NCBI GenBank assembly: GCA_026421185.1
Contig: JAPKCH010000003.1
Coordinates: forward strand, 12,375 to 76,374
DNA length: 64,000 bases
Source: Dehalococcoidia bacterium
GTDB taxonomy: Bacteria; Chloroflexota; Dehalococcoidia; Lucifugimonadales; Lucifugimonadaceae
Direction: 5' to 3'
Positions 43,912 through 58,066 of the stretch are shown piece by piece. Every line of letters begins with the position of its first letter. The stretch's first letter is position 1. Position numbers and translations under genes: made by a program. Below the pieces are notes generated by a model. It was not told the origin of the DNA. It made no database searches and saw only the letters and a program-made list of their open reading frames with translations.

Positions 43912-44784
43912 TTACTTAGATCGCTCTTCAATGAGTTCGAGAACTCCCGAAATGTCATGCTCTTTTTTGCCGGCATCCATCATCGTGTTGTACATCTCGA
44001 GTGACTTTGTAGCCAGTTCAAGCGAAAGACCTTCATCTTCAGCTAACTGGCCGATAATGCCGAGATCTTTCCAGATGAGACGGAGAGGCGCAGCTGAATC
44101 TGGGAAGTCTCGAGCTGCAGTCATTGGAGCATTTCGTTCGATCATCGTGCTACCGCCCCAACTTACTCCAAGTAAGTCAGCAGCTGTTTGAATATCGACT
44201 CCAGCTGAATTGGCGAGGGCGAATGCTTCAGCAGCGGCAACGCTATGTACGCCGACGAGGAGCTGGTTGATCAGCTTCATTGCTGTGCCTGCGCCAGTAG
44301 GTCCCATCAGTTTGACGTTGGCACCCATTTTGGAAAAGTACTCATGCGCAAGTTCGAACGCATCTTCGGAACCGCCCGCCATGATCGCCAATGTGCCAGC
44401 TGCTGCTCCACCAGGACCGCCTGAGATAGGAGCATCGAGGAAATGGGCACCTTTGGCCTGTGCGGCTTCGGCACAAGCACGTGATGTCGCAATATCTACC
44501 GTTCCGTGATCAACGATCACCTGACCCGAGTGTGCGTTGGCGATTACGCCATCTTCACCAAGAAGAATTTCTCGGGAAGTTTTCACATCTGGCAAACAGA
44601 CCATCACGACTTCGACGTTCTTGGTTAGTTCGGCGACGGAAGTTGCGCCCTTGGCACCACGTTCGATCATCGCTTCGATCTTGGATTGTGTGCGTGTGAA
44701 CACAGTAAGATCAGTACCCTTTTCGAGGAGGTTGTCTACCATCCCCTGTCCCATGTATCCAAGACCCACAAAGCCGACTGACAT
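43912..44784 (-). CDS. NAD(P)-dependent beta-hydroxyacid dehydrogenase (3-hydroxyisobutyrate / tartronate-semialdehyde reductase family)
   Basis: Rossmann motif 'VGFVGLGYMGQGM', 'DAPISGG' and 'GAGTAMKLINQ'. 290 aa. Confidence 0.9.
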   Translation of the reverse strand: MSVGFVGLGYMGQGMVDNLLEKGTDLTVFTRTQSKIEAMIERGAKGATSVAELTKNVEVVMVCLPDVKTSREILLGEDGVIANAHSGQVIVDHGTVDIATSRACAEAAQAKGAHFLDAPISGGPGGAAAGTLAIMAGGSEDAFELAHEYFSKMGANVKLMGPTGAGTAMKLINQLLVGVHSVAAAEAFALANSAGVDIQTAADLLGVSWGGSTMIERNAPMTAARDFPDSAAPLRLIWKDLGIIGQLAEDEGLSLELATKSLEMYNTMMDAGKKEHDISGVLELIEERSK

Positions 44785-44823
44785 TATTTGAGAACTCCCG
44801 TGGAAAATCTGATATTGATTGTG

Positions 44824-44854
44824 CGTAAATGTGAATTTATGTCACATCGTTACG
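44824..44854. promoter_or_regulatory. palindromic candidate operator upstream of the dehydrogenase operon
   Basis: CGTAA-ATGTGA-atttatg-TCACAT-cg-TTACG, 45-70 nt upstream of the 44784 start codon. Confidence 0.25.
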
Positions 44855-44960
44855 TAAATAAAGAAGATAGCTCCCTCGATACGTGACGCGATTATATCCG
44901 CTACTCGCCTGTGGTTTGTCGAAAGGTTAATAAATTTTCAGCAGATACGTATTTAGTTAA

Positions 44961-44995
44961 AACAAAAAAAGCGCCGGAATAATCCAACGCCTTTT
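44961..44995 (-). terminator. rho-independent terminator after the permease gene
   Basis: On the minus strand: GCGUUGG-AUUAUU-CCGGCGC (two G:U pairs) followed by UUUUUUUGUU. Confidence 0.55.
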
Positions 44996-45018
44996 TTTGT
45001 GTTTCTTTTGAATTGAGA

Positions 45019-46065
45019 CTAGTCCAGTTGTCTTAATCTCGGGTCGAGACGATCACGTAACCAGTCACCGAAGAAGTTCAATGCCATCACAACCAAGAAG
45101 ATTGCGAATCCAGGCCAGAATGAAATCCACCATGCTTCTTCAATGAACTGCCTACCGTCACTAACACTCTTACCCCATGCAGGGATCGGGTCTGGAATAC
45201 CAGCACCCAAGAATGAAAGTGTTGATTCCGTCAGAATCAATTGACCAACTCGAAGTGAGGCAACAACAAGAATTGTGCTGTACGTACCTGGCAATATGTG
45301 CCTGAGAATAATCCGTATCGAAGACGCACCAGCTACTCTAGCCGCAGCGACATATTCCTGACCACGAATAGTCAATACATCAGCACGTACTTGTCGTACG
45401 AAAGCTGTCCAAGCCACAAGAGTGATCAAGAATATGACAACACCCTTCGCGGCTCCTCCTGACGTTAAGAATTGCTGCGCTACCACCAGTGCGATCAAAA
45501 TAAACGGAAGTGCTAACCACACATCCACAAGACGCATCAATATCTCGTCAGTCCATCCACCAAAGTAACCTGAGATTATTCCCAAAAGAGATCCGACAAT
45601 AATTCCTGTAGTAAGGGCGTATGCAGTCACTTCAAGAGAAATACGTGCGCCGTAAATCACACGAGAAAGTACGTCACGTCCTAAGTTATCGGCACCAAGT
45701 ATGTATACCGAACGTGGGAAGGTGCTCTTCTTCGCCCTATTGAATGCCGAGCGCTGTTTAGTTATCGACATGTCGTAGTCAGCGGGGTCTGGCGCAGTGT
45801 TGAACTCTGGTCTTTCAGCACCCCAAGTTGGCGGGTAGTTTCTGAATGAAAGAGACTGTGAAACAGGATCTGCTGGTGCTATAGCAGGAGCGAATATACC
45901 AGCAATAAGCAATACAGACATGATTATCAACGGGATTATCGGCCATCGCCTAAGGAAGTAGAAAGCCTGAGAAGCGATTCGACGTTTTGCAACGCTACGC
46001 AGTTCTACGCTTTTACCCGTATCCGAAGCACTATTGTTGGTTTGTATGTCAGCCTGTTGAGCCAT
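45019..46065 (-). CDS. ABC transporter permease, DppC/OppC type
   Basis: 348 aa. An N-terminal TM helix followed by a long loop and five further TM helices. BPD_transp_1-like 'AARVAGASSIRIILRHILP' EAA region. Confidence 0.9.
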   Translation of the reverse strand: MAQQADIQTNNSASDTGKSVELRSVAKRRIASQAFYFLRRWPIIPLIIMSVLLIAGIFAPAIAPADPVSQSLSFRNYPPTWGAERPEFNTAPDPADYDMSITKQRSAFNRAKKSTFPRSVYILGADNLGRDVLSRVIYGARISLEVTAYALTTGIIVGSLLGIISGYFGGWTDEILMRLVDVWLALPFILIALVVAQQFLTSGGAAKGVVIFLITLVAWTAFVRQVRADVLTIRGQEYVAAARVAGASSIRIILRHILPGTYSTILVVASLRVGQLILTESTLSFLGAGIPDPIPAWGKSVSDGRQFIEEAWWISFWPGFAIFLVVMALNFFGDWLRDRLDPRLRQLD

Positions 46066-46110
46066 GTGCCTACGCTAAAAACTAAATGTCTTTAAAAAGT
46101 TGTACCGCGT

Positions 46111-47046
46111 CTAGTCGTACCGAATTCTCGGATCGATGTACGCGTACAAGAGGTCGGTGATGAAAGTCATACCAACGAACAAAATTGTGAAGAAAAACAC
46201 AACGCCTTGCAGTACCGGAAAGTCGTTGTTATTCACAGCCGTTATAGCCATTTGCCCCATTCCAGGCCAAGCAAATATTGTTTCTACTAAAACTGAACCA
46301 GTAAGAAAATAGGTCAATCCCAAAGTCATGCCAGTTAGGGGCTGAATGAAGGCATTTTTAAAGGCATGCTTCCAAATTACCTTGCTATTGCCGACACCTT
46401 TGGCACGTGCAAGCCGTACATACTCAGAATCAAGTACTTCTAACATTGCCGTTCGAGTGATTCGCATGTAGAACGCAAATCCGCCTGATGCCAAAGTGAT
46501 TGTCGGAAGCACCAGAAATTTAACGTCCCAGAAACCATCACCCTTGAGCCCGGCTGGAAATATTTGCCACTTCACAGCGAACAGCATGATCAACACAAGG
46601 CCGAGCCAAAATTGAGGCACCGCCTGTCCTAGCAATGCAAAAAATCTACCGAGATAATCCCAAATACTTCCACGTTTTACCGCAGATAGAACTCCAAGCG
46701 GGATACCGACCACAAATGAAAGAATGAACGCTGTGGCTCCTAAATGAAGAGTAGTTGGGAGGCGTTTCAAAACCACCCTCAACACTGGCTTACGATCCTT
46801 GATCGTCTCTCCCATGTCGCCTTTGAGCGTGCGGCCAAGCCATAGCGCATATTGAACTGGAACTGGACGATCCAGCGCCAATTTCTTGCGTAGAGCCGCT
46901 TCACTTTCAGCTGTTAGGCCGTATCCCGAAGTGGCGTAAAGCAGTAACGGGTCGCCATTTGCGCGCGACAGCAAGAATACCGCCATGGTCGCAACCACAA
47001 TACTGACTAACGAAAACACGAATCTACGAATAATAAAACGCCGCAT
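46111..47046 (-). CDS. ABC transporter permease, DppB/OppB type
   Basis: 'MRRFIIRRFVFSLVSIV' is the classic DppB N-terminus, so ATG 47046 is preferred over 47139. EAA motif 'YVRLARAKGVGNSKVIWKHAFKNA'. Confidence 0.9.
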   Translation of the reverse strand: MRRFIIRRFVFSLVSIVVATMAVFLLSRANGDPLLLYATSGYGLTAESEAALRKKLALDRPVPVQYALWLGRTLKGDMGETIKDRKPVLRVVLKRLPTTLHLGATAFILSFVVGIPLGVLSAVKRGSIWDYLGRFFALLGQAVPQFWLGLVLIMLFAVKWQIFPAGLKGDGFWDVKFLVLPTITLASGGFAFYMRITRTAMLEVLDSEYVRLARAKGVGNSKVIWKHAFKNAFIQPLTGMTLGLTYFLTGSVLVETIFAWPGMGQMAITAVNNNDFPVLQGVVFFFTILFVGMTFITDLLYAYIDPRIRYD

Positions 47047-47188
47047 TGATTCCTTGAATCCCACGAGATAATTAATTTTTTGTAAGAGTGGGTTGAGATT
47101 ACCATATATAAAGCTAATCTCACCTATTAGTAATCCCAAATAATGTATTTATAAGCCTTTATTTGGAATTACTAACAGATATTAAATA

Positions 47189-47221
47189 GGAAGGGGACCA
47201 CCAAATGGTGGCCCCCTTCTT
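47189..47221 (-). terminator. intercistronic stem-loop between the binding-protein and permease genes
   Basis: Minus strand: GAAGGGGGCCACCA-UUU-GGUGGUCCCCUUC, a long GC-rich stem about 50 nt after the SBP stop. There is no clear U-run. It is more likely an mRNA-stabilising or attenuating hairpin. Confidence 0.45.
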
Positions 47222-47268
47222 GTTTAACGTTAACCGTTACAAACTGGCAACTTGATCTGAAGTTCGAA

Positions 47269-49209
47269 CTACTTGAGTTCTAGGTTCCAGAGTGAGTTGA
47301 GGTTTGCAGCAGCAGCAACGTCCATAGTGAAGCTCTTTACTTTCTTGTTGTTGAAGTAATAAGCGTCAGGAACGGCTACAACACCAGGCTGTAGAGCCTG
47401 ATCGTAAACGTACGCTAGGTATCCGTTAGCTGCTTCAGTTGCCGTGGCAGTGTCAGGAGCCTGAGCCATCTTCTGGTAAAGATCCAGGATGACTGGTGAT
47501 TCGAAACCACATGAGAAACCACCACGGGTTAGAGATGTCTGTACAAGGCCCTTAGGGAAGTGCCATGGGTTAGACGCCCTACCCTTGTCACAAGATGTGA
47601 TCCATGGGTGCGTGTTGGCTCGACCAACGACAGTAGGTCGGAAGGCCGTGTAGGAGAACTTCAGTGAGAAAGTTTCAAGACCGATGTCGGCCCAGAAGCC
47701 AGCTACAGCGTCAGCAATTTCACCAGTAATCGATGCACCACCACCAAGTTCAGGACCAGCGTAGACGGAGATTTCAAAGGCGTTATCGCCAAGAGGTCCA
47801 TCGGTAGGTGCTCCACCGGATTTGTAGTCACCGTCGAGTCCGTTGATCATCTCAACGGCTGTGTCTGGGTCGTAACCGTATTCGTACTTCGCGTCCCAGT
47901 TAGGGGATGCGTTGTTGAAGTATGTAACATCAACCGGTGCACCAAGACCTGCAAGCAGGGTGTCGTTTACAAGGTCACGGTCGATGGCAATGGCCAAAGC
48001 GTTTCGAACAGTTTTTGCTTGTTCGAGGTCACCTTCACCGTGGCTTGTGCCAGGCTTACCAATCCATGCTAAGTCATGAACGAAAGTTGCCTTAGGTGGA
48101 AGAGGCTCGCCAGTCTTGGCGTTGGTGTCTTCCCATAGGTTACCAGCGAAGAAAATACCAAGCTGAACAGCACCGCCAGCGGACGTCTGTGTGAACTCTG
48201 TCAAGTCATACTTGGCAGCGTCCTTCGGCTCGAGGTGAGCAATGTCAACCTGACCAGTTCGCAGAAGCGAAGATCGAGTAGTTGCTTCAGTTACCTGAAC
48301 CATTTGAATTCGTTCACTCTTTGGCTCTAAGTCACTATCCCAGTGAGTGCCTTCTCGGTTAACGATTGTGTATGACTCGTCTCGGAGCCATTCTTCAACC
48401 TGGAAAGGACCGGTAGCGACAATGTTGTCACGAGACCAGTCTTCGCCTTTTTCGTCAAAAGCCTTCTTCGATAAAATCGAGAGAGCCTGACCTGACTGGT
48501 TGACGTAGTCGTCTTTCCAAGTCGAGTCGAAGCTAGTGAACTTGAACTCAACAGTTTCGTCGTCTATAGCAGTCCACTCACCCCAGAGACCGGCGAAGTC
48601 ACCAGCCTGGCCGTGAATTGACTCAGGATTTGTCTCACTGTTGGCGTTGTTCATAGACCACGCAACGTCGTGTGCGGTCAGGTTGCCTGCGTCATAACCA
48701 TCAACAACCTGGAACGGGATGCCTTGCTGAATTTTCACGGTTGCGCCGGAAAGATCCGCTGTAATCGTGAAGTCATTAGCGATCCAGTTCAATGTGCTGT
48801 CATCAGCAGCACGTCGGAACAAAGTCTCAGCAATTCCAACGTTCTTCAAAAAGTCTTGAGATTGTGCTGAGTTCAGTCCGTTTTGAGCACCCATGTCTGC
48901 GCTGTTAACGGCGATTACAGCCGTGCCTGCAGGTGTGGATGTATCAGGGGCAGTAATAAGTGCCTCAACCACTGCAGCCGGTGCTGCAGGTTGTGCCGTT
49001 GCCGTAGCAACAACAATGATCGTGTCACCCTTTTCGGTGACGGTGATCGTCTCACCCTTTTCGGTGATGGTGATCGTCTCACCCTTTTCGGTGACAACAA
49101 CAGTCTCGACGACAGTGATGGTTTCTGTACCACCACAAGCGACAAGAGCTGTCATTGCAGCACCAATCAAAAGCCCGATTACGAGCTTCATCTTGCTTAT
49201 CTTAAACAA
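47269..49209 (-). CDS. ABC transporter substrate-binding lipoprotein, family 5 (peptide/opine/nickel type)
   Basis: TTG start 8 nt after a GGAGG. Signal peptide with lipobox 'LVACGG'. Repeated 'TEKGETITx' tether followed by an SBP_bac_5-like body. 646 aa. Confidence 0.9.
   Translation of the reverse strand: MFKISKMKLVIGLLIGAAMTALVACGGTETITVVETVVVTEKGETITITEKGETITVTEKGDTIIVVATATAQPAAPAAVVEALITAPDTSTPAGTAVIAVNSADMGAQNGLNSAQSQDFLKNVGIAETLFRRAADDSTLNWIANDFTITADLSGATVKIQQGIPFQVVDGYDAGNLTAHDVAWSMNNANSETNPESIHGQAGDFAGLWGEWTAIDDETVEFKFTSFDSTWKDDYVNQSGQALSILSKKAFDEKGEDWSRDNIVATGPFQVEEWLRDESYTIVNREGTHWDSDLEPKSERIQMVQVTEATTRSSLLRTGQVDIAHLEPKDAAKYDLTEFTQTSAGGAVQLGIFFAGNLWEDTNAKTGEPLPPKATFVHDLAWIGKPGTSHGEGDLEQAKTVRNALAIAIDRDLVNDTLLAGLGAPVDVTYFNNASPNWDAKYEYGYDPDTAVEMINGLDGDYKSGGAPTDGPLGDNAFEISVYAGPELGGGASITGEIADAVAGFWADIGLETFSLKFSYTAFRPTVVGRANTHPWITSCDKGRASNPWHFPKGLVQTSLTRGGFSCGFESPVILDLYQKMAQAPDTATATEAANGYLAYVYDQALQPGVVAVPDAYYFNNKKVKSFTMDVAAAANLNSLWNLELK
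49018..49098. repeat. 3 x 27-nt in-frame tandem repeat inside the SBP tether
   Basis: Units 49018-49044, 49045-49071 and 49072-49098 share GATCGT[G/C]TCACCCTTTTCGGTGA. On the minus strand they encode (T/V)TEKG(E/D)TI(T/I) three times. Confidence 0.9.
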
Positions 49210-49432: not shown

Positions 49433-50443
49433 TTAGGTGACCCTGTGGCGGACAATTTCTTGCAGGTAATCCACCACATTGTCCACAACCATGTTTAGAG
49501 ACACTGTCAAAGCTTCACTTGTATTTGATGCGATATGAGGCGTGAGAATGACGTTCGGCAATCGTGCTAGAGCAGAGTTTCGGTCAAGCGGTTCATTGTT
49601 GAATACGTCTAGTGCAGCACCTGCGATCGTCTCGTTTGCTAGTGCTTCAGCGAGCGCTTGGTAATTGACCAATTGACCACGAGCTGTATTCACGAACAAA
49701 GCCGTCGGCTTCATTCGTGAAAATTCAACAGCGCCGAACATTGAACGAGTTTGTTGTGTTAAGCGCGCATGGATCGATATTGCATCCGAATTTGCTAGTA
49801 ATTCTGAAAAACTAACTTCCGTCCAGTTTGACTGGTCAGCATTAGCGGGAGCAAAGGCAGTATCGCTGAGCGAACTCGCTAAAATTCGCATCCCAATACC
49901 GCTGGCGATCCGTGCCAAACGTACTCCCACGGCGCCAGTTCCTACAATTCCCAACGTTTTTCCGGCCAATTGTGTGAGTTGCCCACCTGGCCATTCGCCC
50001 TCACGAACTCTCAAGTCTAGTTGTGGGATCTTTCTAGCTAAGGACATCAAGAGCGCTAAGGCATGTTCTGCTACTGCAACAGTTGCAGCATTTGGGGTGT
50101 TGGTGACGACAATCCCTAACCTTCGTGCCGATTCGAGTGCAACGTGATCAGCAGCTGTGCCCCAGATTGCAACATGTCTCAGGTTTGGTGCTACAGATTC
50201 AAGAATAGTGTTAGTGATTCTTGTTGTAGTTCTGACCAGTATCACCGTATGTGCACCGGAAATTCGTTCGGTCAGTTCAGATGAACTGCCCGGACGTTCA
50301 GTGAACGTGTTGACTTCGACGTTTGGTAAACGGGAGAGGCGGGCCATCGCTGCAGAATCTGCAAAAACTGAAGGATCGTCATCGGGAATGACCACTCGTA
50401 TCACGCCATCTGGCACATTCGATTTCAAAACTTTGTCTGCCAC
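49433..50443 (-). CDS. D-isomer-specific 2-hydroxyacid dehydrogenase family protein
   Basis: Motifs 'GIVVTNTPNA', 'GKTLGIVGTGAVG', 'FVNTARG' and 'LDVFNNEP...ILTPHIAS'. Confidence 0.85.
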   Translation of the reverse strand: MADKVLKSNVPDGVIRVVIPDDDPSVFADSAAMARLSRLPNVEVNTFTERPGSSSELTERISGAHTVILVRTTTRITNTILESVAPNLRHVAIWGTAADHVALESARRLGIVVTNTPNAATVAVAEHALALLMSLARKIPQLDLRVREGEWPGGQLTQLAGKTLGIVGTGAVGVRLARIASGIGMRILASSLSDTAFAPANADQSNWTEVSFSELLANSDAISIHARLTQQTRSMFGAVEFSRMKPTALFVNTARGQLVNYQALAEALANETIAGAALDVFNNEPLDRNSALARLPNVILTPHIASNTSEALTVSLNMVVDNVVDYLQEIVRHRVT

Positions 50444-50597
50444 CTAATATTGGCCGCCGTATTTCTTTGCGGACAATGCGAGCATATAGGCGACAAGAGA
50501 TTTTCGCCTCATTCGAATGATCATCAGGTGGCCTCGATGCTACGATTATCTTCCGACTACTCCGCTTACAGTGGTTTCTAAACGTGAAAGAAGAAAT

Positions 50598-50936
50598 ATG
50601 ACGCGTGCGCGAGTGCTGTACTGGAAAGAGATCCCAGTGCAAGTTCAAGCTGAAGATGAAAATGGACGAGTTTCGAGGCAACTCGAAGAGAGATTTCAAA
50701 AGGCAGCTGATGCCGTAGCTATGAAAGACGGCAGTGAGGGAACTGACGAATACCTTGATGCTTGGGAATTCGGGTCATACGAGGATGCGGAGGGGGCAGC
50801 GTCAGATGTAGCTGAACAATTAGGCAAAAATTTAGAACAAATGCCTTCCAATTTCGTTCAACGGATCGTTAAAATGCAGGATGATGGTACGAGAGACCCT
50901 CGTCCTGGAGCTATTGACCACTGGGTTGAGCTTTAG
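50598..50936 (+). CDS. 'virulence factor' (PF13769-like) small protein of unknown function
   Basis: 'MTRARVLYWKEIPVQVQAED...LEERFQKAADAVAMKDG..GTDEYLDAWEF' matches my memory of the YWRDIPAQV...RF..AID.AAM...TD.YL..W family pattern. ATG 50598 is preferred over the ORF-track start at 50517. Confidence 0.6.
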   Translation: MTRARVLYWKEIPVQVQAEDENGRVSRQLEERFQKAADAVAMKDGSEGTDEYLDAWEFGSYEDAEGAASDVAEQLGKNLEQMPSNFVQRIVKMQDDGTRDPRPGAIDHWVEL

Positions 50937-50995
50937 TCGGTTTGAACTAGATATATATCTTAGTATCAGTTCAGAAAATATTTTGGAGAAATCAT

Positions 50996-51892
50996 ATGGC
51001 AGTATCTGACGGCAAGCCAGGCATACTTGATCGACTCGAAGCTGGCGATACCCTGATCTTCGATGGGGCGACAGGAACATACCTTCAAAATAATGGACTC
51101 GAACCTGGCGGTAGCCCTGAACTGATGAACGCTACTCACCCAGAAGTGGTTAAGGGAATGTCTAAGCAGTACTTTGATGCTGGTTCAGACATTGTTTTGA
51201 CCAATTCGTTCGGTGGTAATAAGTTCATGCTCGAGCGTTACGGAGCCGGGGATCGCTTGTTCGAGCTAAACCGTCTTGCTGCGGAACATGCACGATCAGT
51301 TGCTCCTGAAGGGAAATTTGTTTCTGGTTCTATTGGACCTACTGGCGAATTTATTGAACCTCTTGGTACAGCAACTGAAGATGAGCTGTACGACACTTTC
51401 TCTGAAATGTCGAAGGCGTTCGAAGCAGGTGGTGCCGACGCCGTAATGATCGAAACTCAGCTCGCCATCGAAGAAGCGGTTATTGCTGTTAGAGCAGCTA
51501 AGGAAACTACCGGACTAGTCGTAATGGCGACGATGGTGTTTGATAAAGGTCCGCGCGGTTATTTCACTATGATGGGTGTGACTCCTGAGCAAGCAGTTGA
51601 GGGACTCGAAGAAGCCGGCGCTGATGTAGTAGGCACGAACTGTGGAAATGGTATTGAGAAAATGGTTGAAATCGCTGCACGTATGCGTGCGGTGACAGAC
51701 AAGTACCTAGTAATTCAGTCAAACGCTGGTATCCCAATCATTAAGAACGGTGAAACCTGTTACCTCGAAACTCCAGAGTTTATGGCGAAACACTATGGTG
51801 ATCTCGCTGAATTGCCTATAAATATTCTCGGTGGATGCTGTGGAACCACTGCCGAACACATCCGAAAACTCATACAATCTGTTCGTAAATAA
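50996..51892 (+). CDS. homocysteine S-methyltransferase domain protein (stand-alone MetH-type Hcy-binding module)
   Basis: Motifs 'LIFDGATGTYLQ', 'THPEVV..YFDAGSDIVLTNSFG', and Zn ligands 'VGTNCGNG' and 'LGGCCGTTAEHI'. 298 aa. Confidence 0.85.
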   Translation: MAVSDGKPGILDRLEAGDTLIFDGATGTYLQNNGLEPGGSPELMNATHPEVVKGMSKQYFDAGSDIVLTNSFGGNKFMLERYGAGDRLFELNRLAAEHARSVAPEGKFVSGSIGPTGEFIEPLGTATEDELYDTFSEMSKAFEAGGADAVMIETQLAIEEAVIAVRAAKETTGLVVMATMVFDKGPRGYFTMMGVTPEQAVEGLEEAGADVVGTNCGNGIEKMVEIAARMRAVTDKYLVIQSNAGIPIIKNGETCYLETPEFMAKHYGDLAELPINILGGCCGTTAEHIRKLIQSVRK

Positions 51893-51930
51893 CTAAACTG
51901 AATCTAATTTACTATTTGGAGAGAAGAGCG

Positions 51931-52602
51931 ATGGCCCCGCTAGCGGAAAAATCAATAGTCGCCCGAAACGTCGCAAGACTTGGGAACTGTATTGAGCTCG
52001 TATCACTAGACCCACACTTTCACGATGTGAGTATTGGTCTCTTTATAAAAGACGGGATTATGACTATCTCGTCATACAGTACTTTCGATGGGATTGATGC
52101 TCGAATCGAGCAAATTCGTGATCGTTGTGCTCATCTTGGCGATGTGGTTGTAGTAAAAGACACCACAGATCAACTTCAACTGATTTCAGATCTCTATTTA
52201 GATCGTGCGCTTCGGTTTATGTTCATTGCTGCTGTGGAAAAAGATCCTTTATCAGAATTTCCAACAGGTCGAATCACAGCCCCTGACACAAAGACAAAAC
52301 TCACATTTGTCGTTGAAGGCGCTGAAGAAGACGGTAAATATGTGTATACCGTTTCTACAGAAGGCGAAGCTGAGCGAGCGGAAATGCGAGTGCGCGCAGC
52401 GGTAGGCGGCTTCATGCGTTATTCAGGCTGCTTACGTGTCGAGAAAAATAAGTTCTCATTCCCTGATGGAAAAAAGTATGACAAATTTGCACGTCTTATT
52501 CTTCCTCTCGCCCGAAATGTGAGTGCCGTTGAAGCACAACTCGAACAAGACGAGATGGCTGGTCAGATGAATACCCAGACACTCGGTTTTGCCCAAAGCT
52601 AG
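51931..52602 (+). CDS. hypothetical protein embedded in the corrinoid methyltransferase cluster
   Basis: ATG 51931 lies 8 nt after a GGAGAG Shine-Dalgarno (the ORF track starts at TTG 51916). 223 aa. No motif recognised. Short gaps to both neighbours. Confidence 0.6.
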   Translation: MAPLAEKSIVARNVARLGNCIELVSLDPHFHDVSIGLFIKDGIMTISSYSTFDGIDARIEQIRDRCAHLGDVVVVKDTTDQLQLISDLYLDRALRFMFIAAVEKDPLSEFPTGRITAPDTKTKLTFVVEGAEEDGKYVYTVSTEGEAERAEMRVRAAVGGFMRYSGCLRVEKNKFSFPDGKKYDKFARLILPLARNVSAVEAQLEQDEMAGQMNTQTLGFAQS

Positions 52603-52636
52603 TCATAAATTTAGAAAAGGTCCTTAGGACAAACTA

Positions 52637-53674
52637 ATGTCACCCGTAATTGAAAAAATGACCTCTCGTGAACGAACAATGGCTGCGCTTGCGGGCGAGC
52701 CTGTGGATCGTCCACCTGTTTGTACTCCGACTAATGTTGCAACCGTTGAGCTTATGGACTTGGTTGACGCTCCGTTTCCTGAAGCAAACCGTAATGCGGA
52801 AATGAATGCACGTCTCGCCGCTACTGCTTACACCGAACTTGGTTTCGACACAATCGCACCGTATTTTTCGATCATTCAGGAATCTTCCGCACTTGGCTGC
52901 GACATGCAGTGGGAACAGAAAGACAACTGGCCAACGGTCAGAATGTCGAAGCCAATTTGGAAAGGCTCTTCCGACGTAAAGATCCCGTCTGATTTTCTTG
53001 AACACAAAGACACCAAAACCATTACCGACTCGATCAGAATTCTGAAACAGGAATTCGGCAATGAAGTCGCAATAGTTGGTAAAACTATGGGACCGTGGAC
53101 ATTGGCTTACCACGTGTTTGGTGTAGAGCCATTCCTTCTTGGAACTGTCGATGACCCAGACGAGATAATGAAATCTCTAGAAGCACTCAAAAAGGTCACA
53201 ATTTTGTACGGTCAGGCTCAAATCGATGCCGGTGCCGATGTACTTACGATTCCCGACCACGCCACAGGCGACTTGGTAAGTGGTGAGTACTACCGCCGGT
53301 TCTTGATGGAAATGCATCAGGAAATCGAAGAAGAACTTTCCGTTCCATTGATACTTCACATCTGTGGTTCGACTGTCGACCGAATGCCATACATCGCAGA
53401 GACGGGTATGGCTGCATTCCACTTCGACTCGAAGAACGATCCTGTTGAGGCGATGGCTGCGGTTGATGGAAAGATTCGTCTTGTGGGAAACATCAATAAC
53501 CCGACAACTCTTTACGCTCGAGGTCCTGAAGAGGTTCGAGCAGAAGTAAACACGGCATTAGATGCTGGAGTTCAGTTGATAGCGCCAGAATGTGCGATTC
53601 CTCTGAAAACAAAGTTGGAAAATCTTCTTGAAATCCCAATCGCTATCGAAGATTGGGTAGCTGAACGCGGCTAA
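52637..53674 (+). CDS. UroD-family (MtaA/MtbA/CmuA/MtsA-like) zinc methyltransferase acting on a corrinoid protein
   Basis: 345 aa. 'MTSRERTMAALAGEPVDRPPV' is the classic MtaA N-terminus. Zn motif 'LILHICGS' (HxC) plus 'IAPECAIP'. Confidence 0.85.
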   Translation: MSPVIEKMTSRERTMAALAGEPVDRPPVCTPTNVATVELMDLVDAPFPEANRNAEMNARLAATAYTELGFDTIAPYFSIIQESSALGCDMQWEQKDNWPTVRMSKPIWKGSSDVKIPSDFLEHKDTKTITDSIRILKQEFGNEVAIVGKTMGPWTLAYHVFGVEPFLLGTVDDPDEIMKSLEALKKVTILYGQAQIDAGADVLTIPDHATGDLVSGEYYRRFLMEMHQEIEEELSVPLILHICGSTVDRMPYIAETGMAAFHFDSKNDPVEAMAAVDGKIRLVGNINNPTTLYARGPEEVRAEVNTALDAGVQLIAPECAIPLKTKLENLLEIPIAIEDWVAERG

Positions 53675-53817
53675 AACCAAGGCCGGAAATTACTAATACG
53701 AAATTAATCAATCATTTTCTTTCGATACGATGAGAGAATAGTTGATTCAATCCGGTTGCATAACTCAATTTGAGCCGGACCCCAAATACACAGAATCCAT
53801 ACTTTTAGAGACTACTA

Positions 53818-54567
53818 ATGCCGATTACGCACGAGGGCCTTGCCCGAGAATTTGAATACGTTACTAATGCCGGTGAGCAAAAGCACATTTCTGAAGGGAT
53901 CGACGGTACTGCTCCGATCATGCAGGAAATTGCCTATCAGCTGATCATTGGAAATAACACTGATGTAGATCGTCTTACTCAGGAAGCATTGTCAGAAGGC
54001 TTCACCGCAAATCAATTGCTCGATGACGGCCTACTCAACGGGATGGCGATAGTGGGCGTGAAATTCCGTGACAACCTGATTTTTGTTCCTGAAGTTCTTG
54101 TCGCTGCACGTGCTATGAAAGCTGGAATGGTACATATCGAACCAATCCTTTCCGCATCTGGCGCCGAACCTGCGGGAACAATAATAATGGGCACCGTTAA
54201 AGGTGATCTCCATGACATAGGCAAGAACCTGTGCATCATGATGCTTAGGGGTGCGGGATTCGTTGTCCACGATATTGGAGTTGACTCGTCGCCTGATGAT
54301 TTCATCGACGCTGTTGAGGAGTTCCAACCCCAGGTGGTTGGCATGTCCGCTCTACTCACGACAACCATGCCAAACATGGGACGCACTATTGCGACCTTTG
54401 AAGACATGGGCTTACGTGATGAAGTCAGAATTATGGTTGGTGGAGCACCTGTGACTCAGGACTTTGCTGATGAGATGGGTGCTGACGCATATGGTGACAA
54501 CGCTGTTGACGCAGTCGACAAGGCAAAAGAACTTGTCAAATTGCTTGCAGAATTGAAGTCCAGCTAA
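53818..54567 (+). CDS. corrinoid (cobalamin-binding) protein, MtaC/MtbC/MetH-B12-domain type
   Basis: B12-binding_2 cap ('ALSEGFTANQLLDDGLLNGMAIVGVKF') followed by a Rossmann B12 domain. The latter carries 'GDLHDIGKN' (DxHxxG), 'MSALLTTT' and 'VGGAP'. Confidence 0.9.
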   Translation: MPITHEGLAREFEYVTNAGEQKHISEGIDGTAPIMQEIAYQLIIGNNTDVDRLTQEALSEGFTANQLLDDGLLNGMAIVGVKFRDNLIFVPEVLVAARAMKAGMVHIEPILSASGAEPAGTIIMGTVKGDLHDIGKNLCIMMLRGAGFVVHDIGVDSSPDDFIDAVEEFQPQVVGMSALLTTTMPNMGRTIATFEDMGLRDEVRIMVGGAPVTQDFADEMGADAYGDNAVDAVDKAKELVKLLAELKSS

Positions 54568-54600
54568 ATATCTGGACAACGTCTAATTGGGGGATATTCA

Positions 54601-54867
54601 TTGGCTGATGGGCAGGGGCGAAACGAAATTCCCAAACTGGATGCTGATAAAGCACGTGCCAGTTTGGATCGTTTGTACGATATCTACAAAGACATCGCTT
54701 CGACGGCTGATGACGTAATGCTGACTCGGTGCCCGTATAAAGACGCATCAAGTCGCTGTACGGCAAAATTTGGCTGTAGAAATCAATTCTTTACGTCCGA
54801 TCCCACCGCCCTGCCCGCCTGTTCCGGCAGCGACCAAATCGATTATCGAGAAGCTTGGGACACGTAG
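54601..54867 (+). CDS. small Cys-rich protein of unknown function
   Basis: 88 aa. TTG start 7 nt after a GGGGGA. Cys pattern 'RCPYKDASSRCTAKFGC...(18)...C'. Lies between the corrinoid protein and its activator. Confidence 0.5.
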   Translation: MADGQGRNEIPKLDADKARASLDRLYDIYKDIASTADDVMLTRCPYKDASSRCTAKFGCRNQFFTSDPTALPACSGSDQIDYREAWDT

Positions 54868-54963
54868 CCCAAGTTTCTACTCTTTTTTTTCAAATCACGT
54901 ACGACCATTTCTGTGATAGTCCAGATCGATTGTTCGTATTCAAAATCCGACAGGCACTGAAGC

Positions 54964-56595
54964 TTGAGCCCCGTATACCTCAATTCACAGAAACTCGACG
55001 CTAATACCAACGACTCATTGTTTGATCTTGCTGATTCACTTTCGGTCAGAGTGCCGACGTCATGCGGTCGTACCGGCGAGTGCCACGAATGTATCGTCGA
55101 AGTCCGGAAAGGTACCGAAGCCCTTACTCCACCGACTGAAGAGGAAAAGTTTCTTCGAGGTAACTATCGTCTCGCTTGTCAGGCGTGTGTCACAGATACA
55201 GAAGTCGATATTGATTTTGCAGTCCTAAGACGGCAACCCCGAATTCTCACTGCTGGAACCAAGCGTGAGATAAAGCTTCAGCCTGCGTATGTCCGTGTCG
55301 AAGACGAAGTTGTGTTCAATGGCGCTGATGGACAAGTATCAGTAGATAAATACCGCGGAGCTATTTACGGGATTGCTGCAGATCTGGGTACTACCACTGT
55401 CGTCCTCAACCTCGTGAATCTCGAAACAGGTGAAACCGTATACACGGCATCCTTCGAGAATCCTCAGCGATTTGGTGGCAGCGACATCATGAACCGTATT
55501 TCCTACGATGGCGGGAAAGACGCGGGCGAACTACGAGCGGTGATGGTCTCATCCATCAATTTCGAAATTGGTGAAATGGTTCGTGCTCTGAAAATTCGTA
55601 GACGTCAGATTTTTGAATTCGTAGCGGTTGGAAATACCACGATGCGAGATTTGTTTTTTGGTATCGATGTGCAAAGCATCGGAACTCGGCCATATAAATC
55701 GTTGATAGAAGATGAGTTCCGAGAATCAAAACGCGAAACCACCGCACTCACTACAAGTGCAGCCGAACTCGAACTTAGAATCAACCCTAAAGCTACAGTC
55801 TATGGCGGTCCGCTCATCGCATCCCACCTGGGAGCTGATACAGCGGCCGATCTTCTTGCTTTGGGTATTGAGGACCAAATAGAACCGGTCATTCTCGTCG
55901 ATGTTGGTACAAATACTGAGGTTGTTATTGGTAACCGCGATCGCCTACTGGCGGCCTCATGCCCTGCTGGACCTGCATTCGAAGGTGGCGAAGTTACCTA
56001 CGGCATGCCTGGATATGATGGTGCAGTTGAAAAAGTAACGATCGATGAGAACGGTGAAGCCGAATCGCAAGCGATAGGTGAAATCGACCCGATTGGTATT
56101 TGTGGATCAGGACTGATTGATCTGCTGGCTGAACTACGCCGTACAAATCTAATGAACCCACTCGGGAAGTTCGAAGACGACTCAAACGAGTACGAATTTT
56201 CCTCTACCAACAACCTTACTATTTCACGAGCCGATATTTCTGCACTAGCTCAGGCCAAAGCTGCGAACTATTGTGGTCAAGCTATTGTTCTCAGAGAGTA
56301 CGGACTTCCAATAGAGAAGTTCGAAAAGCTTTACCTTGCCGGCGGATTCGCCAACTATGTCGATGAATCTAACGCCATAGATATTGGGTTTATCGCAAAC
56401 ATGCCACTGGAAAAAGTCGAAAAAGTTGGAAACGCATCGCTGGAAGGTGCTGTCATCATGCTTTTATCGACCGTCAAACGGGTCGAAATCGAAAAGTTGA
56501 CAGCTACTATCGAACACGTGGAACTCGAAACGGCTCCTGACTTTTTCGATTTCTTCGTGGAAGGTTGCATGTTCAAGCCGATGGAATCGGTGTAG
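54964..56595 (+). CDS. RACo-type reductive activator of corrinoid enzymes (2Fe-2S ferredoxin + ASKHA ATPase)
   Basis: TTG start. N-terminal plant-type ferredoxin 'SCGRTGECHEC...LACQAC'. ASKHA phosphate-1 motif 'IAADLGTTTVV' and a second 'VDVGTNTEVV'. 543 aa. Confidence 0.85.
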   Translation: MSPVYLNSQKLDANTNDSLFDLADSLSVRVPTSCGRTGECHECIVEVRKGTEALTPPTEEEKFLRGNYRLACQACVTDTEVDIDFAVLRRQPRILTAGTKREIKLQPAYVRVEDEVVFNGADGQVSVDKYRGAIYGIAADLGTTTVVLNLVNLETGETVYTASFENPQRFGGSDIMNRISYDGGKDAGELRAVMVSSINFEIGEMVRALKIRRRQIFEFVAVGNTTMRDLFFGIDVQSIGTRPYKSLIEDEFRESKRETTALTTSAAELELRINPKATVYGGPLIASHLGADTAADLLALGIEDQIEPVILVDVGTNTEVVIGNRDRLLAASCPAGPAFEGGEVTYGMPGYDGAVEKVTIDENGEAESQAIGEIDPIGICGSGLIDLLAELRRTNLMNPLGKFEDDSNEYEFSSTNNLTISRADISALAQAKAANYCGQAIVLREYGLPIEKFEKLYLAGGFANYVDESNAIDIGFIANMPLEKVEKVGNASLEGAVIMLLSTVKRVEIEKLTATIEHVELETAPDFFDFFVEGCMFKPMESV

Positions 56596-56783: not shown

Positions 56784-57770
56784 ATGACCACCAAAGTACT
56801 AATCACCGACTACGTATGGCCTTCGACAGATCCTGAACGAGAAGTTCTAGAAGCTGACGGCATTGAACTGGTTATCGCCCCCGACACTTCGGAATCTACT
56901 CTCGCTGAGCTAGCAAAAGATGTCGACGCTATCATGTTTTGTTTCGCACAAGTAACAGCCAAAGTTCTTGAGTCTGCGAAAAAATGCAAAATTGCAGCAC
57001 GGTACGGAATCGGCGTCGATAACGTTGATATTGCGAAAGCAACGGAACTCGGAATAGTAGTAACAAACGTTCCTGATTACTGCATGGACGAAGTAACTGA
57101 TCATGCATTAGCTATGATCCTAGCTTTGAATCGCCGGCTAGTGCCACACACAAGTTCTGTTGTGGCAGGTGGTTGGAATGACGTAGCGTTGAACCAACCT
57201 ATGCACCGAACGCGTGGGGCCACTCTAGGTATCGTCGGTTACGGCCGAATCGGCCGCTCTCTCGGTGCTAAGGCCGTGGGCTTTGGCATGGAAATTCTTG
57301 CGTACGATCCCATGATAGAAGTAGGTTCAGACGTAGAAGGGGCAACAGCCGTTTCACTCGATCATCTACTGGCGAAGTCTGACTTCGTTTCATTACATGT
57401 ACCGCTTATACCTACAACCCAAAATATGATCAGTGCACCTGAACTGGCAAAGATGAAAGCCGGTTCGATAATTGTGAACTGCGCTCGTGGAGGTCTGATC
57501 GATGAAGATGCTCTCGCTGCTTCACTAGCATCGGGCCACACTGCAGGCGCGGGACTTGATGTTGTAGAACCAACTCCCCCTAGTTCTGACAGCGCTCTTA
57601 TTCAGCAAGAAAATGTGATCATCACGCCTCACACTGCATTCTTCTCTCAGGCTTCCACATTGGAACTTGAGCAACGAACTGCTCAGGAAGTCGTTCGTGT
57701 ACTCGCTGGAGAAAAACCTAAGAACCTGATCAACCCACACGTGTTGGGCAAAGCGCGATCAGGAATTTAG
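56784..57770 (+). CDS. D-isomer-specific 2-hydroxyacid dehydrogenase (CtBP/PGDH-like)
   Basis: Motifs 'GIGVDNVDI', 'GATLGIVGYGRIG', 'IVNCARGGLID' and 'LDVVEPTP...IITPHTAF'. Confidence 0.9.
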   Translation: MTTKVLITDYVWPSTDPEREVLEADGIELVIAPDTSESTLAELAKDVDAIMFCFAQVTAKVLESAKKCKIAARYGIGVDNVDIAKATELGIVVTNVPDYCMDEVTDHALAMILALNRRLVPHTSSVVAGGWNDVALNQPMHRTRGATLGIVGYGRIGRSLGAKAVGFGMEILAYDPMIEVGSDVEGATAVSLDHLLAKSDFVSLHVPLIPTTQNMISAPELAKMKAGSIIVNCARGGLIDEDALAASLASGHTAGAGLDVVEPTPPSSDSALIQQENVIITPHTAFFSQASTLELEQRTAQEVVRVLAGEKPKNLINPHVLGKARSGI

Positions 57771-57948: not shown

Positions 57949-58023
57949 GCCAACGTAGCTCAGTGGTAGAGCAGCTCATTCGTAATGAGCAGGTCGGAAG
58001 TTCAATCCTTCTCGTTGGCTCCA
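57949..58023 (+). tRNA. tRNA-Thr (anticodon CGU), CCA encoded
   Basis: Cloverleaf folded by hand. Acceptor GCCAACG/CGTTGGC, D-arm GCTC/GAGC, anticodon arm GCTCA-TTCGTAA-TGAGC, T-arm GGAAG-TTCAATC-CTTCT, discriminator T, then CCA. Confidence 0.93.
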
Positions 58024-58033
58024 TATAAAAAAA

Positions 58034-58066
58034 GCCCTCAACTATACGGTTGGGGGTATTTTGTTT
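58034..58066 (+). terminator. rho-independent terminator after tRNA-Thr
   Basis: GCCCTCAAC-TATACG-GTTGGGGGT followed by ATTTTGTTT. Confidence 0.55.

Follow-up and report, generated by a model that had tools for sequence, protein, structure and literature searches.

Among the genes of a 64,000-nucleotide stretch of Dehalococcoidia bacterium DNA (contig JAPKCH010000003.1; the whole stretch is referred to as the window), seven co-directional genes at positions 50598-56595 of the + strand combine parts of a split cobalamin-dependent methionine synthase with a zinc methyltransferase of the MtaA/CmuA type. The original prediction, made from the sequence, had this UroD-fold enzyme standing in place of the folate module, so that methyl groups from a non-folate donor would pass via a corrinoid protein to homocysteine. 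The analysis described here leads us to regard the cluster, with a probability of about 0.5, as a modular corrinoid methyl-transfer hub combined with a split cobalamin-dependent methionine synthase, i.e. as the Chloroflexota/Acidobacteriota counterpart of the MtgBCDE system, in which the MtaA-like enzyme would be a third methyltransferase on the donor side. The seven genes (g1-g7) were called as open reading frames (ORFs) and translated; the gaps between them are, in order, 59, 38, 34, 143, 33 and 96 nt, in agreement with the predicted range of 33-143 nt. Pfam and NCBIfam searches bore out the predicted gene list with all its domain assignments, and the motifs GGCCGT (g2), HxC...C (g4) and DxHxxG (g5) are present in the translations.

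In corrinoid systems, a corrinoid protein carries methyl groups between donor-side and acceptor-side methyltransferases, RamA/RACo regenerates Co(I), and PF02574 modules methylate homocysteine through a Zn-thiolate. A stand-alone, MtgE-like module of the last kind is encoded by g2 (50996-51892; PF02574, E 3e-61), with the Zn cysteines present in NCG and GGCCGT. Its NCBIfam matches, all of them below the equivalog cut-offs, were led by the alphaproteobacterial 'BHMT' (245.7 bits), followed by YitJ (234.5 bits), MetH (155.9 bits) and MmuM (64 bits; cut-off 215), which puts g2 nearer to the MtgE- and YitJ/MetH-type modules than to MmuM, in line with the predicted MetH type. The alphaproteobacterial 'BHMT' has been reinterpreted as MtgE (Mausz et al.; PMC12478193), and the tight linkage of g2 with a corrinoid protein argues for a corrinoid-dependent enzyme. 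This corrinoid protein, the MtgC-like product of g5 (53818-54567), consists of a B12-binding cap and a B12-binding domain (PF02607 and PF02310) with the motif DLHDIG, and is 46% identical to the hub corrinoid protein (MtgC type) of S. meliloti. The product of g7 (54964-56595) belongs to the ATP-dependent reductive activators of the RACo/RamA type with an N-terminal 2Fe-2S domain; Fer2, RACo_middle and RACo_C_ter all scored above the Pfam cut-offs, and the AcsV model gave 328 bits, which is below its cut-off. The homocysteine module, the separate corrinoid protein and the RamA/RACo activator of a split cobalamin-dependent methionine synthase are thus all encoded, while its PF00809 (pterin-binding) module and DUF1638 are missing from the cluster and from the 64-kb window.

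The small protein g1 belongs to PF13769 (E 1e-12), named 'virulence factor' in Pfam. Its longest ORF begins at 50517, and orthologues begin at the position of MTRARVLYWKEIP, so that the true start is most likely 50598 (gene coordinates 50598-50936). The motif YWKE.P.Q is kept in 88 orthologues. Homologues of PF13769 lie directly 5' of MetV-MetF-pterin methyltransferase-ASKHA genes in S. meliloti (locus L090, 8986-9288) and Azoarcus KH32C (L091, 9001-9336); both clusters adjoin a corrinoid protein gene and DUF1638, and further carry an MttB-family gene (S. meliloti) or genes for glycine betaine transport (Azoarcus). This placement in proteobacterial clusters marks g1, as judged from gene order, as a probable general accessory of RamA/RACo-dependent corrinoid methyltransferase systems, and the name 'virulence factor' is probably a misnomer.

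The putative Zn methyltransferase g4 (52637-53674; PF01208, E 8e-65) matched the MtaA/CmuA family TIGR01463 over its full length and above the cut-off (256.7 vs. 235.4 bits), as well as NF004889 (270.4 vs. 244 bits). Against the hemE equivalog it reached 73.2 bits (cut-off 302.95), and HemE chains in the PDB were matched with E 6e-15 or weaker, compared with 5e-55 for MtaA, which confirms the predicted MtaA/CmuA-like and not HemE-like nature of the enzyme. The scores for MtaA (241.9 vs. 400 bits) and MtbA (204.7 vs. 600 bits) are below the equivalog cut-offs. A comparison with CmuA by way of a plasmid collection led to HemE-level matches only and to no CmuA. In the full-length alignment with MtaA from M. 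mazei (4AY7), LHICG and APEC of g4 correspond to LHICG and APxC, which hold the zinc ligands HxC...C of MtaA. None of these residues (H241, C243 and C319) varies among 243 orthologues, in which 126 of the 345 positions show at least 98% conservation, and with 66-83% identity from Acidobacteriota to SAR202, g4 shows the highest conservation of all genes in the cluster. As a His-Cys-Cys ligand set has been argued to mark sulfur and selenium methyltransferases (PMC10418091), the invariant site argues for a sulfur (or selenium) compound as the substrate of g4. Methyl halides appear less likely, given that the haloalkane-specific UroD-type CdmB is Zn-free (PMC13222342), and the very high conservation points to a compound that is ubiquitous or endogenous, for example methanethiol.

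Two further proteins, g3 and g6, belong to the core of the cluster and to no family of Pfam (searched to E 10) or NCBIfam. The gene g3 (51931-52602; 223 aa, or 228 aa from an alternative TTG start at 51916) represents a small family with 205 representative clusters among 1.84 billion proteins. Its AlphaFold model (predicted local distance difference test, pLDDT, 83; predicted template modelling score, pTM, 0.75) found no match among the folds of the PDB, the best hit having E 0.017 and a template modelling score of 0.23. A relation to DUF1638 as a diverged member was considered and rejected (hhalign probability 0.5%, no Pfam match at E 10). In g6 (54601-54867; 88 aa), the cysteines C44, C53, C59 and C74 are invariant and the motif RCPYK..CTAxFxCRNQ..CxGSDxLDYRxAWE is kept in 95 orthologues, so that the protein may bind a metal or an Fe-S cluster.

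The host is a member of the SAR202 Chloroflexota, with g4 about 95% and g3 82% identical to proteins of the cultured SAR202 bacterium Candidatus Lucifugimonas marina. Among the matches listed, g4 homologues with at least 72% identity occupied the top 120 clusters, and an identical g4 with the same seven genes in the same order was found on six independent metagenome assemblies. Conservation of the gene neighbourhood, which the original prediction had put forward as a check, extends to about 160 diverged loci from Dehalococcoidia, SAR202 and Acidobacteriota. Recurring in the six assemblies and at these loci, the cluster is no chance arrangement. Its invariant core consists of g3, g4, g5 and g6, and a minimal operon of just these four genes occurs at L138 and relatives. 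Often present with this core, but separable from it, are the homocysteine module, RACo, PF13769, a pterin module and, downstream, a 2-hydroxyacid dehydrogenase. The same seven genes as in the window are found at L008 and L009 (g4 identity 73% and 83%, respectively), and at L007 (76%) an additional gene for a PF00809 pterin-binding protein of 346 aa is located between g4 and g5. In Acidobacteriota the clusters are without g2 and flanked by MetV-MetF and a 2-hydroxyacid dehydrogenase; the marine Chloroflexota metagenome-assembled genomes (MAGs) L010 (4431-6392) and L013 carry a YitJ-like fusion of 653 aa between g6 and g7, which joins a homocysteine methyltransferase to a methylenetetrahydrofolate reductase (MTHFR); L010 and L018 have two tandem MtaA-like paralogues; and in a small clade (L058, L080) a MetFV-pterin module lies upstream of g1.

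The position of the pterin gene was followed in two scans, in both of which contig ends and the scan ranking affect how often each cluster variant is counted. A g3-anchored scan of metagenome contigs gave 80 loci, 47 of them informative: g4 is followed by the pterin gene in 16, directly by g5 in 26 (one of these with the pterin gene upstream of g1), and by an unrelated insertion before g5 in five. A pterin-anchored scan of one genome per GTDB species gave 317 relatives, and in about 70 of the best 80 loci, examined by tblastn with the window proteins and biased toward pterin presence by the anchor, the gene is located directly 3' of the g4 orthologue in the order g1-g2-g3-g4-pterin-g5-g6-g7; these loci are from Dehalococcoidia, other Chloroflexota, SAR202 MAGs and Acidobacteriota. 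On a rough neighbour-joining tree of g4, presence of the pterin gene is clade-structured with at least five changes among 118 clusters, and the window groups with clusters that lack it, among them L008, L009 and the minimal operons of g3-g4-g5-g6. To speak of a UroD-type enzyme 'in place of the folate module' is hence misleading, because both genes normally coexist, and g4 can be read as an additional, third methyltransferase and not as a substitute. The original prediction had itself named a pterin gene consistently encoded with the cluster in other genomes as evidence against it; such a gene accompanies the cluster across much of the family, though not in the clade of the window. There, the predicted lack of a pterin-binding or MttB gene from the cluster holds even for the 64-kb window, in which tblastn detected no pterin-binding, MTHFR, MttB or DUF1638 gene. 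A genome without the module in its cluster may still encode it, because MetFV-pterin pairs without the cluster are free-standing at seven loci in Chloroflexota genomes, and the pterin module of the window clade may well be located elsewhere, with an MTHFR fusion.

From gene content, family memberships, conserved metal ligands and the synteny with its variants, we infer the following activities, including a partnership of g4 with g5, the donor role, direction and substrate class of g4, and roles for g1, g3 and g6. The corrinoid protein g5 would cycle between Co(I) and CH3-Co(III), with g7 re-reducing oxidised Co(II) at the expense of ATP, and g2 would transfer the methyl group from the corrinoid to homocysteine, yielding methionine. 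As the third, dedicated methyltransferase acting on g5, and always encoded with g5, g3 and g6, g4 most likely fills the slot of the MttB-family MtgB in Proteobacteria. It would demethylate a small S-methyl compound (methanethiol, dimethyl sulfide, methylmercaptopropionate or similar) and load the corrinoid, from which the methyl group would be passed to homocysteine or, with a pterin module, to tetrahydrofolate (THF). In most relatives, methyl-THF would provide a second entry or exit point via the pterin module, often with MTHFR; in the window clade, this module is probably encoded outside the cluster, elsewhere with an MTHFR fusion. We read g4 as the third methyltransferase of the hub because the cluster shares the logic of MtgBCDE and homologous parts with it, with an MtaA-type enzyme occupying the place of the MttB-type one. 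A donor role is compatible with all three architectures, leading from the donor via the corrinoid to homocysteine in the window clade, via the corrinoid to THF and MetF in Acidobacteriota, and along both routes in most Chloroflexota. An acceptor role would fit the Acidobacteriota and the full clusters, and would leave the window-type cluster without a loader unless the pterin module is located elsewhere.

Several observations weigh against a hub with g4 on its donor side. The conservation of g4 between SAR202 and Acidobacteriota (66-83%) is unusual for a catabolic, substrate-specific methyltransferase and would better fit a universal or endogenous substrate, and the characterised close relatives MtaA and MtbA run in the opposite direction, from the methyl-corrinoid to a thiol. 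In addition, no transporter or catabolic gene from which a substrate might be deduced is consistently linked at the related loci, and DUF1638, a part of the proteobacterial system, is absent from the 64-kb window.

A first alternative, which stays closest to the original prediction, is that methionine synthesis in the SAR202 clade is folate-independent, with no pterin methyltransferase in the genome and the UroD-type enzyme as the sole feeder of the corrinoid, drawing on a methylated thiol, a methyl halide or a methoxy compound. The 64-kb window without PF00809 or MTHFR genes is consistent with this, and so is the pterin-less layout as a stable trait of the clade (26 of the 47 informative loci, with the at least five changes on the tree). 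No record of Lucifugimonas was found in the best 80 of the 317 pterin loci from GTDB species genomes, a negative that covers these 80 only. In the supplementary table of the Lucifugimonas culture paper, the main text of which does not discuss cobalamin or methionine, the methionine synthase step is filled only by 'yitJ' (K24042; COG0646 and COG0685), and neither K00548 (metH) nor K00549 (metE) is listed. Methionine synthases that depend on a methyl-corrinoid without folate are known in principle (MesA, MesB and MesC; PMC7857596). However, the same cluster in sister clades comes with a pterin gene, MTHFR fusions or MetVF, and seven Chloroflexota genomes show that the MetFV-pterin module can stand on its own. 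The Lucifugimonas annotation moreover includes MTHFR (COG0685), and its product methyl-THF would have no obvious other consumer. Because of the movable MetFV-pterin pairs, this MTHFR entry and the restriction to the best 80 of 317 pterin loci, we consider folate independence rather unlikely.

The invariant, thiolate-activating Zn site and the methylcobamide:coenzyme M methyltransferases as nearest characterised relatives would also suit a second alternative, in which g4 acts as a methyltransferase 2 (MT2) as in methanogens, transferring the methyl group from a corrinoid loaded by methyl-THF to a thiol, sulfide or selenide and forming e.g. methanethiol. The product might, for example, feed a direct synthesis of methionine with O-acetylhomoserine, or the reaction might serve detoxification. 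The Acidobacteriota arrangement MetVF-g4-pterin-g5-RACo, which is without a homocysteine module, indeed reads as a path from methyl-THF via the corrinoid to a thiol, and ClMlp2 methylates sulfide and selenide in vitro (PMC10418091). In the window clade, however, the cluster would then hold two acceptor modules and no donor, and g4 is the only candidate there for loading the corrinoid. Coenzyme M synthesis is not known from these bacteria. We consider an MT2 function unlikely.

More unlikely still is a role of g4 as homocysteine (or selenohomocysteine) methyltransferase, i.e. as a 'core methionine synthase' with the fold of MtaA that uses the methyl-corrinoid and is partly redundant with g2. 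Acidobacteriota without g2 keep g4 along with MetVF, the pterin methyltransferase, the corrinoid protein and RACo, and the very high conservation would fit a housekeeping role; the relation of MetE barrels to this enzyme type is reportedly discussed in a MetE structure paper. Core methionine synthases that use corrinoids have also been described (PMC7857596). Nevertheless, g2 and g4 are retained together, both under strong conservation, in almost every Chloroflexota cluster, which speaks against redundancy, the His-Cys-Cys site is that of coenzyme M methylases, and no sequence evidence for an amino acid-binding pocket was obtained. Finally, that g4 uses methyl-THF and so replaces the folate module is a remote prospect, as MtoA, the supposed precedent of a UroD-type enzyme that methylates a pterin, is in fact MtrH-like.

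With neither K00548 nor K00549 in the annotation table of the cultured relative, the cluster is probably the methionine route of these organisms and would set their B12 requirement. In the dark ocean, SAR202 count among the most abundant bacteria, and the related carriers of the cluster comprise numerous Chloroflexota and Acidobacteriota known from environmental metagenomes. The strongest form, for which the odds are low, would be that in the pterin-less SAR202 clade g4 is the sole feeder of the only methionine synthase of the cell, with methionine and S-adenosylmethionine (SAM) receiving their methyl groups from methanethiol, a breakdown product of dimethylsulfoniopropionate or another non-folate S-methyl compound, and with g3 and g6 as obligatory parts. 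If true, growth of an abundant deep-ocean lineage would be tied to the marine organosulfur cycle, and g3 and g6 would be new obligatory components of a methyl-transfer machine. In any case, two conserved proteins without assigned fold or family and a probably misnamed 'virulence factor' accessory have been pinpointed, and knowing what g4 acts on might uncover a sink or source of methylated sulfur compounds in aerobes that has gone unrecognised.

Directly downstream of g7, a D-2-hydroxyacid dehydrogenase (56784-57770, +; PF02826/PF00389) is encoded, with phosphoglycerate dehydrogenase (PGDH) as the best NCBIfam match, below the cut-off. Orthologues with 50-59% identity follow g7 directly at about 30 related loci of both cluster variants (including L008, L010, L012, L030 and L064), so that the gene is a probable eighth member of the cluster, with serine/C1 supply as one candidate role. 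A relative also follows the free-standing MetFV-pterin pairs, and one precedes MetV-MetF in Acidobacteriota. A second D-2-hydroxyacid dehydrogenase (49433-50443, -; identified by Pfam) is divergent from g1, and relatives of it with 47-50% identity occupy the same position at some of the related loci only (L009, L058, L073, L080 and L170). A consensus scan revealed a terminator-like hairpin with an 11-bp stem and a T run (54849-54888, +), which overlaps the stop codon of g6 upstream of g7 and might set transcription of g7 apart or attenuate it; as such sites are in total no more numerous than expected from shuffling, the hairpin is a lead only. Just 3' of the downstream dehydrogenase follow a tRNA gene (57949-58020, +; 68.6 bits) and another terminator-like hairpin at 58034. 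No SAM, B12 or THF riboswitch was detected 5' of the cluster, whether gathering scores were applied or matches with an E of up to 1 were admitted. Further upstream, a set of minus-strand genes (43912-49209) encodes an SBP_bac_5 binding protein, two Opp/Nik-type permeases and a 3-hydroxyisobutyrate dehydrogenase-like protein, and the related contigs L001 and L009 extend a set of this type with Iso_dh and aldo-keto reductase genes. As a clue to the substrate, these ATP-binding cassette transporter and oxidoreductase genes were set aside as probably unrelated, since they are common to L009 and not to L008 or most loci. In long-read soil Dehalococcoidia MAGs (L022, L027, L028, L038, L042 and L043), genes for DUF4268, DUF433, Fic/DOC and GmrSD are located inside the cluster, and such selfish or defence-like genes seem to land repeatedly at the same junctions, g3-g4 or g4-pterin. 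These insertions, as well as a glycosyltransferase gene, were likewise rejected as substrate clues, being unrelated and selfish or defence-like.

Searches of the available literature, also on PF13769, turned up split MetH, the concept of a hub, core methionine synthases and mlp clusters, and no account of the present cluster, of its g3 and g6 proteins, or of enzymes resembling MtaA in SAR202, aerobes of the class Dehalococcoidia or Acidobacteriota. Three-component O-demethylase, Cdm and Cmu systems likewise combine a UroD-superfamily methyltransferase I, a corrinoid protein, a pterin-dependent methyltransferase II and an activator, which matches the pterin-containing relatives of the window. 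Unlike in CdmB, which has no Zn (PMC13222342), the thiolate-type Zn site of g4 is intact, and the O-demethylases form a separate branch (PMC10418091) and differ from the present cluster in its linked homocysteine module. Type 1 mlp clusters resemble the present one in encoding MtaA-like His-Cys-Cys enzymes with a corrinoid protein and a bacterial activase of the RACE/RACo type, in many cases with no folate methyltransferase, and a role in methyl-sulfur/methyl-selenium metabolism and methionine salvage has been proposed for them (Kountz and Balskus; PMC10418091). They are, however, restricted to obligate anaerobes, mostly Firmicutes, and need at least two distinct Mlps (Mlp2, Mlp3; PMC10418091), whereas the cluster of the window, with its single MtaA-like gene, falls outside this definition and has in addition the PF02574 module, g3, g6 and PF13769, in aerobic lineages. 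To MtaA, MtbA and MtsA of methanogens (4AY7), g4 is related by full-length homology, the UroD-type barrel, the HxC...C zinc ligands and the company of a small corrinoid protein and an ATP-dependent activase. In contrast to MtaA and MtbA, the equivalog cut-offs of which are not reached, g4 comes from an aerobic marine heterotroph for which use of coenzyme M is not known, and it is encoded with a homocysteine module (in relatives also a folate module) instead of donor enzymes of the MtaB/MtbB type.

The closest parallel is MtgBCDE, or three-part split MetH, of Rhodobacterales and S. meliloti, where genetics has shown one corrinoid protein to function in methionine synthesis, with the pterin and homocysteine modules, as well as in the demethylation of glycine betaine, with an MttB-family enzyme (PMC12478193; PMC5764234). 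The cluster differs from it in the substrate-specific methyltransferase, which is of the MtaA/CmuA type with UroD fold here and of the MttB family there, in the absence of DUF1638 from the window and the invariable presence of g3 and g6, in its form as a single, tight, operon-like cluster, and in its hosts, Chloroflexota and Acidobacteriota, with no pterin module in the cluster of the window clade. Common to both are the stand-alone MtgE-like module, the MtgC-like corrinoid protein, reactivation of the RamA/RACo type instead of a SAM-binding domain, a PF13769 gene in the cluster and, in relatives of the window, the adjoining pterin-binding MtgD-like module with MetV/MetF. As in MtgBCDE, several methyltransferases would share one corrinoid protein, as judged here from the genes, and the idea of a corrinoid hub, in which one B12 protein serves methionine synthesis and environmental demethylation, would thereby extend to new phyla and to a methanogen-type methyltransferase.

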